This document shows positions 5-7,189 of a stretch of 8,544 bases of DNA, in pieces (position 1 is the stretch's first letter; every line of letters starts with the position of its first letter). Source of the stretch: an archaeon (GTDB taxonomy: Archaea > Iainarchaeota > Iainarchaeia > Iainarchaeales > CSSED10-239). The notes under the pieces were generated by a model, which had not been told where the DNA came from, did no database searches, and saw only the letters and a list, made by a program, of their open reading frames with translations. Both the position numbers and the translations under genes were made by a program. The DNA lies in NCBI GenBank assembly GCA_035387745.1, contig DAOOON010000027.1:1-8544 (forward strand). The letters are read 5' to 3'.

Positions 5-1615
5 TTAATTTGTAATTTTCCATAAAGATGAATCTTCAGAAGATGTTCCATCCACAAGTGTGCCTTTAAAAGTAATCATGTAATCGCCACTACTTTTACA
101 ATTAAAACTATATGTCTTATTTGTTATTGGAATAGAATTGTTGCCTAAATCAAATGTACTAGAATAAACTCCTGTTAAAATATACTTACAGTTGTTTGTG
201 GGTTCATAATTACCTGTAAACGCATTTTTTAATTTAATTGAAGCAACTAAATTAAAAGCTCTTCCGTCTTCGCCGTCTACCGAAAGCACAGTATTAAAAT
301 TACGATTTCTTCTAATACTTCCACTCTCTGGAGTAAGAATTAATTCTATTGCTTTTTTACAGTTACTTGTATCGATTTGGCAATAATTTGAATTACAACT
401 TAAATCTCCGATTAACCAAGAAGAATTGACGTCTGTACATGTTTTTCCAGAAAATTCTCCCAGATCTTCGCCATCACATTGCTCGCTGCCTTCAATTATG
501 TGATTACCACACATTTGATTAGAATATACTCTTGAACAACCATTATTTGAAGAAAATCTCTCTTCTTCTAATTGAGTCATAGTACTATAATAACGCCAAC
601 CAGAAGTTAAATTTGTATTTAAAATAATTTCATTAGTATTTGAATTTTCAACAGACAGAATTGCACCTGTTGCTGATTGGTTTGTGTCGTATATTAATTG
701 AACTATAGAATACTCTCCAGCTAATAATTCTCTAGAATCAGAAGCCCAACCATTTATCCAAACGTACTTTGGAATAATTACAATCTCGTTTGAGATATCA
801 TGATCTGGCCACAACCAAACCTTTGTTTCATCATCACCAAGAGCAGAAATTATAACATTTGTAGTTTCTGATAAAACAAAAGAATTATACAAAAAATAAT
901 AATCCTGTATATAATGGCAATCGGAACTTGGGCAAAGCCAAAGTGCACTTGGATCTGGCCATGTCGCCATGTTTCCTCTGGTAAACCAGTTAGGGTCTGT
1001 GGTGTTATAAGGCCGCCAACCGCCGCTCTCAAATTTAAGACACTCACTTGCTGGCCAGAATTCACATTGTGTTGTATCAAACAAACAACTTTCATTACAA
1101 GATAGAGCTCCATAATCAAAATTTAAAGAACTACAACTTTCGCTATTTAAATCTTCGCCATCACATTGCTCTGCACCCTCTATAATACCATTACCACAAA
1201 CTGGCAAAGCCACACAGCCAGAAGTATTAATTGTGCAATCGAGATTACAAGATAAATTCCCAGAAGAATCGGGAATTAAAGAAGAACAAGTTTGTACTCC
1301 GAAATTCAAAGAATCACACTCTTCTCCAGAATCAATATTTCCATTACCACAATTTTCTGTACAACAATCACTAGAACAGTTTTCACAAGTCTCTCCTGAT
1401 TCACAAATAAAATTACCACAGATAATTCTGGTTGGAGAAGTTACCTCTGAATAATTAATGGGTGATTGGGCCATACCTAAAACACTATCGGACTTCGACA
1501 TAGAAAATTGAGCAGAATGTTGATTTAGATAAAACATACCAAAAAGAACCATACCAATAATTATTACACTAATTACAACCAAAACTTCTAATGCAACTTG
1601 GCCTTTTTTACTCAT
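5..1615 (-). CDS. Class III (prepilin-type) signal peptide protein with cysteine-rich repeats and a central beta-sandwich (PA14-like) region; putative pilin-like surface adhesin (~536 aa)
   Basis: The ORF track gives 5..1657. I place the start at the internal ATG 1613..1615 (residue 15, MSKKGQVALEVLVVISVIIIGMVLFG) because a GGAGGTG Shine-Dalgarno (1623..1629, minus strand) lies 7 nt upstream of it and would fall inside the longer ORF. The N-terminus is a short basic leader, then KG|Q, then a hydrophobic helix with Glu at +5, which is the archaeal class III / type IV prepilin pattern. The mature part holds a CGNFICESGETCENCSSDC motif and three 6-Cys repeats (CGNGxIExGExCD...C...LSCNxxC...C). 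The stop TAA is at 5..7. Confidence 0.75.
   Translation of the reverse strand: MSKKGQVALEVLVVISVIIIGMVLFGMFYLNQHSAQFSMSKSDSVLGMAQSPINYSEVTSPTRIICGNFICESGETCENCSSDCCTENCGNGNIDSGEECDSLNFGVQTCSSLIPDSSGNLSCNLDCTINTSGCVALPVCGNGIIEGAEQCDGEDLNSESCSSLNFDYGALSCNESCLFDTTQCEFWPASECLKFESGGWRPYNTTDPNWFTRGNMATWPDPSALWLCPSSDCHYIQDYYFLYNSFVLSETTNVIISALGDDETKVWLWPDHDISNEIVIIPKYVWINGWASDSRELLAGEYSIVQLIYDTNQSATGAILSVENSNTNEIILNTNLTSGWRYYSTMTQLEEERFSSNNGCSRVYSNQMCGNHIIEGSEQCDGEDLGEFSGKTCTDVNSSWLIGDLSCNSNYCQIDTSNCKKAIELILTPESGSIRRNRNFNTVLSVDGEDGRAFNLVASIKLKNAFTGNYEPTNNCKYILTGVYSSTFDLGNNSIPITNKTYSFNCKSSGDYMITFKGTLVDGTSSEDSSLWKITN
359..511 (-). repeat. Third copy of the six-cysteine repeat (CGNHIIEGSEQCDGEDL...C...LSCNSNYC...C), separated from copies 1-2 by the ~160-aa central domain
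   Basis: Residues 383-433 carry the repeat. It shares an identical 21-nt block (464..484 = 1151..1171, encoding EQCDGED) with copy 2. Confidence 0.7.
1064..1351 (-). repeat. Two tandem copies of a ~45-aa six-cysteine repeat (CGNGNIDSGEECD...C...LSCNLDC...C and CGNGIIEGAEQCD...C...LSCNESC...C)
   Basis: In the translation, residues 103-148 and 154-198 of the ORF-track protein align with conserved Cys positions. The CGNG..E.GE.CD start resembles the Myxococcus cysteine-rich repeat family (myxo_disulf_rpt). Confidence 0.7.
1526..1615 (-). other. Class III signal peptide / pilin-like N-terminal helix (MSKKG|QVALEVLVVISVIIIGMVLFGMFYL)
   Basis: It has a basic leader, Gly at -1, Gln at +1 and Glu at +5, followed by about 20 hydrophobic residues. 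This matches the Class_IIIsignal family pattern (KGQ.s.E + hydrophobic), the type cleaved by PibD/EppA-type prepilin peptidases. Confidence 0.65.
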
Positions 1616-1622
1616 AGCTATA

Positions 1623-1629
1623 CACCTCC
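1623..1629 (-). promoter_or_regulatory. Shine-Dalgarno GGAGGTG for the pilin-like gene
   Basis: The reverse complement of 1616..1635 reads TCTGGGGGAGGTGTATAGCT followed by ATG. The spacer is 7 nt, and the motif is complementary to the conserved 16S rRNA 3' end. Confidence 0.7.
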
Positions 1630-1660
1630 CCCAGAAACTACAAATATATTTAGGCAATAC

Positions 1661-5443: not shown

Positions 5444-6232
5444 TTATTTTTTCAACCCTAATATTTTGGATATAAATTGCCTTTTAATAATTTCTTGTGA
5501 TTTAATAGAATATATATTGACTTCTTCTCTTATTAATGTGTCTAAATATTTAAATAATTTTTTTTGCTCAATTACAGATCTATAAGACAACAGTTCTTTT
5601 GTCCGAGGATTAGATAATAACGCAGTTTTAATTTTTTTAGCAACCACGTATCTCAAATTAAACTTATTGTATTCCATATTTACTGTATTTAATAACTCTC
5701 TATAGTCCTCAAAAGAAATCAAAGAATTAGAATTAAGTAGTGCCAAATTATAATTGATTATGGTGTTAATTCTTTTTTTATCTGTGGCTTTAAGTAAATC
5801 ATAATCCTCTAATTCTTCTTGAATTAATCTTTTCTTTGCATCTGCTTTTGAAATAAGATTATTTTTAAATTTTTGATTTTTTACTTTTATAATTATAGAA
5901 AATGCTTCGTGCTTTAATTTTTTTAAATCTTCAAAAGTAATCTCTGGTAGGTCTTTTAGTCTTTTATACCAAAAATTGTTTAGATCTTTTTGTCCTTTTT
6001 TTGATAAAACTGCTAATGTCTTAACTCCAACCATTCTTCTTAAAATCTTTAATTTTGGATTAACTTTTCTATCTATTTCGCTTTGTATGCCTGGCGCATC
6101 TTCTGCCCAATATCTTTTCTCTTGAATTTTTCTAATGGTCGGAATTACTTTTTTAAATATTACTTTGTTCTTTTCAGGTAATGGAGTTATGGGATTTCCT
6201 TTTGTGTGTATCTTTATTTTTGGTTTTGGCAT
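5444..6232 (-). CDS. Hypothetical Lys-rich, predicted helical protein, 262 aa, Pro/Lys-rich N-terminus (MPKPKIKIHTKGNPITPLPEK...)
   Basis: The ORF starts 10 nt downstream of the archaeosortase-like gene's stop, with AGTGAGTGA upstream as a weak SD. I recognise no family. Confidence 0.7.
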   Translation of the reverse strand: MPKPKIKIHTKGNPITPLPEKNKVIFKKVIPTIRKIQEKRYWAEDAPGIQSEIDRKVNPKLKILRRMVGVKTLAVLSKKGQKDLNNFWYKRLKDLPEITFEDLKKLKHEAFSIIIKVKNQKFKNNLISKADAKKRLIQEELEDYDLLKATDKKRINTIINYNLALLNSNSLISFEDYRELLNTVNMEYNKFNLRYVVAKKIKTALLSNPRTKELLSYRSVIEQKKLFKYLDTLIREEVNIYSIKSQEIIKRQFISKILGLKK

Positions 6233-6242
6233 TTTTCTTCAC

Positions 6243-6797
6243 TCACTTTGTATTTATTCTAAACCAAACATAGTAGGTTCCAATAACTATAATAATAAGG
6301 AAAAGCCTAAAAAGGAAACCATGCACAAAATTTGCAAAAGACAAATTGTCGTTTATTATTATTAGAGAAGTAACAACTATTCTTGTAAGATTGAAAAATA
6401 TTATGACTGGAATTGCAAGAAGCGCGCCAAATATCCTTTTCTTTAGAGAAATACCTACTGACGAGAGGATTGCAGAAATTAGAAGAGAAAACTCCAAGAT
6501 GCCTGAACAAAGAAAAGAAATCACTATCGGCTCTTTTAGATTAGACACAAGAATGCTTGAAGTCTTAGTAAGAGAATCAAAAACAAAAGAATTACTTGCA
6601 CCAAAAACAGATAATAACACACTAGAAAAAAAACCAAAGAAATAATTTATATAGCCAGAAACTGGAGACTTAGCAAACAACAAATAAGAAAGAGAAAAAA
6701 CTAAAATAAACAAAAACAAGAAAAAAAGAGCTTTCTTGTGCTCTTTCTTATTTTTTAAATCTTTTTTAAATTTTTTAAAAAAAGAATTAGATTTCAT
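6243..6797 (-). CDS. Minimal exosortase/archaeosortase-family membrane protein (184 aa)
   Basis: It is polytopic, with about 5 hydrophobic segments. It has the motifs PIVISFLCSGILEF (Cys97, codon 6507..6509), FFNLTRIV (Arg139, 6381..6383) and FVHGFLFR (His159, 6321..6323). The CSG ... NxxRI ... H order and the 42-residue Cys-to-Arg spacing match the conserved core of the exosortase/archaeosortase family (Exosortase_EpsH, exo_archaeo). Haloferax ArtA has essential Cys173 and Arg214, 41 residues apart. Its ATG overlaps the rps8e stop (ATGA at 6794..6797). Confidence 0.65.
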   Translation of the reverse strand: MKSNSFFKKFKKDLKNKKEHKKALFFLFLFILVFSLSYLLFAKSPVSGYINYFFGFFSSVLLSVFGASNSFVFDSLTKTSSILVSNLKEPIVISFLCSGILEFSLLISAILSSVGISLKKRIFGALLAIPVIIFFNLTRIVVTSLIIINDNLSFANFVHGFLFRLFLIIIVIGTYYVWFRINTK

Positions 6798-7189
6798 TTA
6801 ACGAAAACACCAGTTACTTGGCCTGACTGACCTGGTCTTGATGTTACTTTTACCCTTGTTTCTTTACCATCTACATCTACTTTAAGGATTGCGCCTTTTG
6901 TAATAATCTTTTGTCTAACAAAGTGCTTATTTGCAGGATTCTCTGTAACATCTATAACTTTTGCTTTTATAGTCTTGTTGCCTTCAGAAACCAAAACAAA
7001 CTGAGCATGAGAAATCTTTATCTTCTTATTGCCGCCAACTGTTCTTGTCTTAAATCTCTTATCGACTTTAGCAACTGTTGTCTTTGAGAACTTTCCGCCT
7101 TTTTCGCTTAAAGACTTTGTTTTAGCATTAACTGCGTTATTTACGCCGCCTGTTGCTTTTCTCCTTGATACTCTTTTCCATTCAACCAT
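6794..7189 (-). CDS. rps8e: 30S ribosomal protein S8e
   Basis: The 131-aa product has the N-terminal W..VSRRKATGG motif and the C-terminal ENPANKHFVRQKIITKGAI ... TSRPGQSGQVTGV motifs characteristic of archaeal S8e (Ribosomal_S8e). The length is typical. Confidence 0.95.
   Translation of the reverse strand: MVEWKRVSRRKATGGVNNAVNAKTKSLSEKGGKFSKTTVAKVDKRFKTRTVGGNKKIKISHAQFVLVSEGNKTIKAKVIDVTENPANKHFVRQKIITKGAILKVDVDGKETRVKVTSRPGQSGQVTGVFVK

Follow-up and report, generated by a model that had tools for sequence, protein, structure and literature searches.

The stretch of DNA described here (hereafter the window) is the 8,544-nucleotide (nt) contig DAOOON010000027.1, whose source belongs to the Iainarchaeota/Diapherotrites, a DPANN lineage. 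An earlier note made from the sequence alone had thought of archaea with small genomes, and the organism is one of these. Its G+C content is about 30%, and its coding density is high. Our subject is a gene for a small membrane protein of the archaeosortase family, which directly follows the gene for ribosomal protein S8e, and a gene farther downstream for a secreted protein of 900 amino acids (aa) whose C-terminus has the layout of a sorting signal. A gene for a coiled-coil protein lies between these two on the opposite strand, and a gene for a pilin-like protein lies beyond the large gene. The earlier note had joined the archaeosortase, the 900-aa protein, and the pilin-like protein into one surface-attachment system, and the three genes are indeed where it had placed them, all on the minus strand. 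Our analysis points to a smaller unit, in which the archaeosortase and the large protein may form a dedicated pair. The features on which the argument turns are as follows.

6794-7189, minus strand: ribosomal protein S8e gene (PF01201, E = 3e-21; TIGR00307)
6243-6797, minus strand: archaeosortase-family membrane protein, 184 aa (TIGR04178)
4607-4993, plus strand: coiled-coil protein, 128 aa, predicted cytoplasmic, divergent from the 900-aa gene
1712-4414, minus strand: large secreted surface protein, 900 aa
1784-1804, minus strand: candidate sorting motif LSAFFSL, residues 871-877 of the 900-aa protein
1715-1777, minus strand: C-terminal transmembrane (TM) helix (residues 880-897) and basic end RKR (898-900) of the 900-aa protein
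5-1615, minus strand: pilin-like protein, 536 aa, from the start codon used by its orthologues
1313-1351, 1160-1198, and 473-511, minus strand: DUF4215-type Cys repeats of the pilin-like protein

The 184-aa protein passes the generic profile hidden Markov model (HMM) of the exosortase/archaeosortase families (TIGR04178, exo_archaeo), with 37.8 bits against a cutoff of 23 (E = 1.7e-9). On the Pfam model PF09721 (Exosortase_EpsH), it scores 13.2, below the cutoff of 25.7; several of its homologues carry a precomputed PF09721 match. The scores on subtype models all fall far short of the cutoffs (XrtM, 29.3/125; ArtD, 19/125; XrtG, 16.6/102.75; pacearchaeosortase, 14.1/80; here and below given as score/cutoff), and ArtA (TIGR04125) gave no match at E ≤ 1, which agrees with the earlier note's assignment to the family and to no named subtype. 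In an alignment of 30 homologues, 43 to 90% identical to the window protein, Cys97, Asn136, Arg139 (in an NxxR motif), and His159 are invariant; Cys, Arg, and His are the putative catalytic triad of the exosortase/archaeosortase family (Haft 2023 preprint). A PDB sequence search with the archaeosortase profile returned nothing useful. By its sequence, the protein is a member of the exosortase/archaeosortase superfamily outside the named subfamilies, and its peptidase activity is predicted.

The small size of the enzyme, which the earlier note had treated as unusual, turns out to be common. Four segments exceed a Kyte-Doolittle value of 1.8, and a fifth hydrophobic segment lies at residues 50 to 72; about five such segments are fewer than in EpsH-type enzymes, which have eight or more helices (Haft 2023 preprint), and are normal among the subfamilies whose models have 150 to 190 positions. 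These are ArtB, ArtD, ArtE, ArtF, XrtH, XrtM, XrtX, XrtY, XrtF, XrtG, and pacearchaeosortase, compared with 271 positions for ArtA. The 37 homologue clusters in the protein collection measure 146 to 191 aa (nearly all 180 to 191) and are 46 to 100% identical to the window copy. A profile search against 1.84 billion protein representatives found 477 clusters at E ≤ 1e-3 and 159 at E ≤ 1e-10, nearly all of 160 to 225 aa, and ten sampled relatives pass the generic signature cutoff only and no subtype cutoff. The window enzyme can thus be placed, from these profile matches, in an unnamed subfamily within a large, mostly unnamed radiation of archaeosortases of 160 to 225 aa. Three distant members (P0147, P0148, and P0149) have short or different contexts and yield no general rule of an enzyme with a tailed neighbor. 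A metagenomic protein of 1,102 aa (P0194) joins a mini-archaeosortase domain (residues 1 to 182; PF09721, 29.8 bits) to a large protein in which a short repeat is followed by KGFYAVTPFLGVIIIL, a pilin-like opening segment; P0194 may be a genuine fusion, or else two neighboring genes have been read through as one.

The 900-aa protein begins with a signal-like segment at residues 14 to 32 (...VISGVYA/DP) and contains 26 N-x-S/T sequons, compared with 14.9 ± 3.3 in shuffled sequences, so the earlier note's description of it as sequon-rich stands. An AlphaFold2 (AF2) model based on 25 orthologues (mean pLDDT, 78.5) is composed of seven all-beta domains of the beta-sandwich type (residues 30-146, 178-282, 301-409, 429-541, 568-656, 664-760, and 768-864), joined by linkers that are disordered and either acidic or rich in Ser and Asn. 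Eight conserved Cys residues are spaced about 100 residues apart, which suggests one disulfide in each of four domains. The 25 orthologue clusters measure 880 to 1,050 aa save for one 681-aa entry, and the few among them that bear a name all read "hypothetical protein." The protein has no sequence relatives in Pfam, NCBIfam, or the PDB, and the top 50 Foldseek matches of its model in the PDB are ciliary ASH-domain/immunoglobulin (Ig)-like and macroglobulin arrays with TM-scores of at most 0.24.

Among the genes of the locus, the large gene changes fastest: at distant loci, its product is about 27 to 35% identical, compared with about 60 to 66% for S8e and 46 to 53% for the archaeosortase. At short range, comparison with a close relative (L002) at window positions 1000 to 3500 reveals a patch of 2.4 kilobases (kb) that is 87 to 92% identical, the rest of the window being 99.8 to 100% identical. 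The patch, which spans two surface-protein genes (the 900-aa gene in its 3' two-thirds, tail included, and the pilin-like gene in its 5' part), looks like recombination or diversification. Because the large protein diverges faster than its neighbors and is affected by this patch, we read it as probably surface exposed, a location that such divergence would fit. It is a candidate S-layer glycoprotein on the basis of its architecture, its universality in the clade, and its genomic position, not of homology.

The C-terminus of the large protein consists of LSAFFSL (residues 871 to 877), KN, AGSILLGIVVLIVLFLVF, and RKR. Mean Kyte-Doolittle hydropathy is 2.72 over residues 879 to 897, and the AF2 model has a short helix at 870 to 876 and another at 880 to 899. 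In 16 diverse orthologues, the motif reads [LI]-[ST]-[GA]-[FL]-[FL]-[STNV]-[LF] a little ahead of the helix, with S/T at position 2 in 15 of 16 and, in all 16, G/A at position 3 and F/L at positions 4 and 5. In consensus form, [LI][ST][GA]F[FL][ST][LF], it occurs in each of the 23 large-protein copies of the loci compared. It is retained where the large protein is only about 27 to 35% identical, and the 15 residues that precede it are among the least conserved of the protein. The earlier note had recognized the tripartite layout (motif, TM helix, RKR) and that it belongs to no named type, and our searches concur. On six orthologous tails, no named CTERM model reached its cutoff, all matches being limited to the helix and basic part; Heimdall-CTERM was the best subthreshold match on several tails (up to 15.2/24) and left the motif uncovered, and the PGF-CTERM model did not match. 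An HMM of the tail, trained on 16 of the 23 tails scored, gave 35.8 to 62.1 bits for all 23 large-protein copies (L001-L027); the next best open reading frame (ORF) scored 11 bits, through its hydrophobic part only.

In the clade of the window and in its nearer relatives, the protein ends right at the basic cluster (...FRKR or ...FRRR). In one subclade (L007, L015, L020, L022, and L023), a Lys/Glu-rich tail of 77 to 91 aa, predicted to be cytoplasmic, continues past the TM helix and closes with the common motif [KR][QE][IV]T[LF]xx[LV][DE], as in PRQITLGELD and SKQITLKQLDEAKN. One further protein with a membrane-anchored C-terminus was found in locus L004, from a 90%-identical relative, where a gene for a 498-aa secreted right-handed beta-helix (NosD-like) protein (12158-13654) is inserted between the coiled-coil and large genes. 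This protein has a C-terminal TM helix and a basic end of its own (…LLSEFKNSW-TM-KHKG); we rejected it as a second substrate, as the tail HMM leaves it unscored.

The genes are linked with great regularity. A scan with one genome per species found 18 loci, all in uncultured archaea, including Candidatus Forterrea multitransposorum, Candidatus Iainarchaeum, and "Diapherotrites archaeon." We compared the nine window proteins with 27 loci reached through either the enzyme or the large protein, several of these loci being copies of the same contig. The S8e gene lies immediately upstream of the archaeosortase gene in 27 of 27 loci, and a homologue of the large protein starts 572 to 3,232 nt downstream of the archaeosortase gene in all 25 loci with more than about 500 nt past the enzyme; look-ups from the side of the large protein gave the same arrangement (2/2). 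Every locus long enough to include it has the coiled-coil gene between these two genes and in the opposite orientation. A metagenome scan with the coiled-coil protein as the query added 40 loci, all with the same context, of which 34 contain the archaeosortase and 34 the large protein; wherever a partner is absent, the contig extends for less than 1 kb on that side. In all, about 65 related loci carry the block of S8e, archaeosortase, coiled-coil protein, and large protein wherever the contig is long enough, co-occurrence of enzyme and signal being measured by gene neighborhood only.

What surrounds the block is less constant. Several loci lack the upstream Xpf gene and keep the block all the same, and an L3-L4-L23-L2 ribosomal operon directly follows the large gene outside the close relatives of the window, in which alone an array of pilin-like genes is found downstream of the large gene. 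The block is thus kept despite change on both sides and inside. The coiled-coil gene, which the earlier note did not mention, belongs to this conserved block. Its product is 56 to 100% identical across loci, more conserved than the archaeosortase or the large protein, with near-invariant segments QDIKALQSSILVLSQKIKYLVHNEKILGRNILILNKK and LKEMKYIIDNINPLEYTT; family searches gave weak coiled-coil matches only, and a PDB sequence search gave nothing useful.

The remaining genes of the window lie around and between those of the block.

7874-8542, minus strand: Xpf/Hef-type nuclease gene
7295-7873, plus strand: Lys-rich soluble protein, 192 aa
5444-6232, minus strand: Lys-rich soluble protein, 262 aa
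5002-5442, minus strand: Lys-rich soluble protein, 146 aa

The three Lys-rich proteins have no match in Pfam, NCBIfam, or PHROGs, and Rfam and tRNA scans of the window found no RNA family and no tRNA. Read directly from the sequence, the stop codon of S8e overlaps the start codon of the archaeosortase gene as ATGA, and the archaeosortase gene is followed, after gaps of 10 and 1 nt, by the 262-aa and 146-aa genes. Given the overlap, S8e and the archaeosortase are probably co-transcribed, and with the two short gaps, all four genes probably form one operon. The 900-aa gene and the coiled-coil gene diverge from an A+T-rich intergenic region of 192 nt.

Some variation inside and near the block deserves record. 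The 262-aa and 146-aa genes occupy a variable slot between the archaeosortase and coiled-coil genes and are found in some clades only, with other small genes elsewhere, and a Cgi121-like gene sits at the position of the 192-aa gene in other clades. In distant clades, a Tyr-rich secreted protein of 118 to 131 aa, not present in the window, is encoded directly upstream of the large gene (L006:5752-6108, L007:11443-11799, and L027:1378-1773); its composition resembles that of the Tyr-rich first domain of the large protein. One locus (L006, ena:ERZ27315652:k141_270571) carries a diversity-generating retroelement about 2 kb upstream of the S8e-archaeosortase pair. Its repeats lie at 147-268 and 1224-1345, the 122-nt variable repeat being located 3'-terminally in a gene that is truncated at the contig edge and the template repeat lying between the bAvd gene and the reverse transcriptase gene, and 18 of the 19 mismatches fall on template adenines.

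The pilin-like gene behaves differently from the block. Its listed ORF (5-1657) opens at TTG, and the orthologues begin at the ATG at 1615, which is most likely the real start and gives a protein of 536 aa. The N-terminus, MSKKGQVALEVLVV..., has K-G/Q+1...E+5 followed by a hydrophobic helix. It scores 10.3/23.7 on Class_IIIsignal (PF04021), below the cutoff. The pattern of this putative class III-type N-terminus (M[SN]KKGQ[VT]AxE[IV]LV plus helix) nevertheless does not vary among orthologues, and three neighboring paralogues show it as well. The protein contains 32 Cys residues and three CGN[GH]xI[DE]xxExCD repeats, so the prepilin-like start and Cys-rich repeats that the earlier note had seen both stand as sequence features. 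On myxo_disulf_rpt (TIGR02232), it scores 16.9/20.8 over two stretches; an orthologue (P0064) and many partial homologues carry PF13948 (DUF4215). PA14 gave no HMM match at E ≤ 1. The AF2 model has an N-terminal helix (residues 3 to 32), a poorly modeled central beta region, and a C-terminal Ig-like domain, and Foldseek returned generic Ig-like matches only, with no PA14, pilin, or S-layer match. No C-terminal sorting tail is present in the protein.

Full-length orthologues of the pilin-like protein form about seven clusters, from close relatives only, and its gene is present in L001-L004, L008, the start of L009, and L031-L032. The pilin-like gene opens a row of four or more adjoining genes with class III-type signals (L001:15183-20555, L004:16559-20555, and L005:14771-20558), which share the start [KR][GA]Q[VST][AS][LI]E[VI]L[VI] and carry unrelated passengers (DUF4215 repeats, GLUG/CHB_HEX_C_1/Fn3_assoc, and DUF285 repeats). 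The pilin-like gene is a variable add-on outside the conserved module. We propose that its product is a separate surface protein, anchored or assembled via its class III N-terminus. The co-conservation that the earlier note expected of all three genes therefore holds for the archaeosortase and 900-aa genes, which are syntenic in every related locus with enough sequence, and fails for the pilin-like gene.

Based on these observations, we hypothesize that the archaeosortase and the large protein are enzyme and substrate of a dedicated pair, specific to this lineage, through which Iainarchaeota mature their major surface glycoprotein, possibly that of an S-layer, a reading that we judge to be about evenly poised between right and wrong. 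The protein of about 900 aa would be exported by Sec with removal of its signal peptide, as its N-terminus suggests, and N-glycosylated, as its excess of sequons suggests, and its C-terminal helix would first hold it in the membrane with the basic end inside. The archaeosortase, which we propose is constitutively expressed because of its probable co-transcription with S8e, would recognize the juxtamembrane tail motif through Cys97, Arg139, and His159 near the outer membrane face, cut there, and then, by analogy with Haloferax ArtA, exchange the helix for a lipid anchor. The product would be the main surface, probably S-layer-like, glycoprotein, built of seven beta-sandwich domains in series. 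Across the clade, this protein is universal, single, and encoded beside ribosomal operons, and a core envelope (S-layer-like) role therefore fits it better than that of an accessory adhesin; host attachment, as favored by the earlier note, receives no specific support. A more specific and more tentative version, which we think unlikely but by no means negligible, is that the enzyme subfamily processes this single neighbor, an S-layer glycoprotein, at a new [ST][GA]F[FL] signal that is spaced from the helix and internal in many lineages, so that cleavage frees a membrane stub with a functional cytoplasmic tail, perhaps acting with the coiled-coil protein.

Several observations weigh against the proposed pair, and some of them favor its main rival. 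In that reading, the large protein would be a common type I surface protein anchored in the membrane, whose helix and tail stay in place and whose motif is a stalk or interface element, with an archaeosortase that has unlinked substrates or none and a synteny that reflects ribosomal-operon gene order. A polar spacer of 4 to 6 residues (KNAGS, GNAG, SDTKG, and similar) separates motif from helix, whereas the motifs of known exosortase and archaeosortase signals (PEP-, PGF-, and GlyGly-CTERM) normally abut the helix with no spacer (Haft 2023 preprint). In most clades other than those close to the window, the protein runs 10 to 90 residues past the helix and basic cluster, and one subclade keeps an extreme C-terminal motif, [KR][QE][IV]T[LF]xx[LV][DE]; this conserved end points to a functional cytoplasmic tail and perhaps to a TM anchor that is never removed. 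A tail that is not terminal is in itself not disqualifying, because a Haloferax ArtA substrate with a nonterminal tripartite element is known (Abdul Halim 2017, as cited in PMC6098224). In about 450 kb of locus sequence, scanned by regular expression, a generic C-terminal-anchor filter, and the tail HMM, the tail was found on one orthologous family only, so the usual argument from multiple substrates is unavailable; as to the uniqueness of the tail that the earlier note had raised, it is conserved in all orthologues and occurs on no other family in those loci. The 900-aa gene has its own promoter region in the divergent intergenic stretch and is outside the archaeosortase operon. Gene order is conserved over the whole region, including S8e, Xpf, and the ribosomal operons, and the synteny may for this reason partly reflect a narrow clade. 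In addition, neither the sequence searches (Pfam, NCBIfam, and PDB) nor Foldseek found a known S-layer domain or fold in the 900-aa protein. We nevertheless consider the type I reading doubtful, though it carries real weight: the linkage holds in about 65 loci despite rearrangements around and within the block, the motif is an island of conservation beside poorly conserved flanks, the proteins of the window's clade and nearer relatives stop exactly after the basic cluster in the canonical sorting layout, and no other candidate substrate was seen in the scanned loci.

A three-part host-attachment system of archaeosortase, anchored glycoprotein, and oversized pilin-like adhesin appears very improbable to us. 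In its favor, 7 kb of one strand hold all three genes, TIGR04205 ("archaeosortase D/PIP-CTERM system-associated") provides a precedent for class III-signal proteins associated with a mini-archaeosortase, and in P0194 a mini-archaeosortase domain is continuous with a protein that starts like a pilin. However, most loci with the other genes have no pilin-like gene, the large gene being followed there by the L3 operon; where the pilin-like gene does occur, it is part of a variable array with unrelated passenger domains, its product lacks a sorting tail, and the TIGR04205 score is 12.2 against a cutoff of 65. Because the pilin-like gene is not co-conserved, we reduce the system to two parts, or to three with the coiled-coil gene. 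Improbable too is a function of the mini-archaeosortase outside C-terminal sorting, of the kind suspected for small exosortase-family proteins without known CTERM targets; the enzyme might, for example, be a housekeeping membrane protease or an assembly factor, with the surface-protein gene a mere neighbor. Such a role would suit an enzyme gene embedded in a ribosomal-protein operon and a radiation of relatives with varied contexts, and the best subthreshold subtype matches are XrtM and XrtG; we know of no CTERM target assigned to XrtG. Against it stand the intact, invariant Cys/Arg/His triad and the constant presence of a protein with a fitting tail within about 3 kb.

The principle of the proposed pair is already known; the enzyme subfamily, the presumed signal, and the partner are unnamed. 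In Haloferax, the S-layer glycoprotein is a substrate of the ArtA/PGF-CTERM system (PMC6098224). Our locus resembles that system in its enzyme superfamily with conserved Cys, Arg, and His and in a presumed substrate that is large, secreted, and sequon-rich, has Ig-like domains, and finishes with the three-part order of motif, TM helix, and basic residues; a small residue and Phe are common to both motif cores, [ST][GA]F here and PGF there. In contrast to ArtA (271-position model), the enzyme here has 184 aa and about five hydrophobic segments, its gene is in the S8e operon, and it has one adjacent substrate rather than several scattered ones; the signal differs from PGF-CTERM in having no Pro, a spacer of 4 to 6 residues, and no Thr-rich linker, and many orthologues have long cytoplasmic extensions.

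Closer parallels exist among the small enzymes. The pacearchaeosortase/PACE-CTERM-PROT pair of Pacearchaeota (NF033505, 167 positions, and NF033506), known to us here from NCBIfam model names alone, likewise combines a DPANN mini-archaeosortase with one large putative S-layer protein that has its own CTERM; our enzyme differs from it in scoring 14.1 against a cutoff of 80, and our large protein has no full-length NF033506 match, one tail scoring 7.2/110. The ArtD/PIP-CTERM system (TIGR04175, 150 positions; TIGR04205) is similar in uniting a mini-archaeosortase and a class III-signal protein in one system, as the earlier note had proposed for this locus, whereas the scores here are 19/125 and 12.2/65 and co-conservation of enzyme and class III protein is lacking. 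Heimdallarchaeosortase/Heimdall-CTERM and Loki-CTERM (NCBIfam) are comparable as phylum-specific archaeosortase/signal pairs; unlike in the Heimdall system, the model match misses the motif here and the enzyme does not match heimdallarchaeosortase. As for the 536-aa protein, the sugar-binding proteins of the Sulfolobus bindosome are large surface proteins with class III signals, and it resembles them in bearing a prepilin-like N-terminus on a large passenger and differs in having no solute-binding domain. It is also like the Myxococcota DUF4215 proteins in its CGNGxxExxExCD repeats, the HMM scores of the window copy being subthreshold.

Iainarchaeota/Diapherotrites were listed among newly proposed phyla in a 2017 review of archaeal S-layers, and our literature search found no paper linking them to an archaeosortase. 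If the proposed pairing is correct, it would identify for Iainarchaeota both the probable major surface glycoprotein and the enzyme that anchors it, and with the motif and two profiles, dozens of proteins now annotated as "hypothetical protein" could be assigned to a defined sorting pair. It would also provide a minimal system of one archaeosortase and one substrate for mechanistic work, drawn from the large and mostly unnamed radiation that archaeosortases of this size form.

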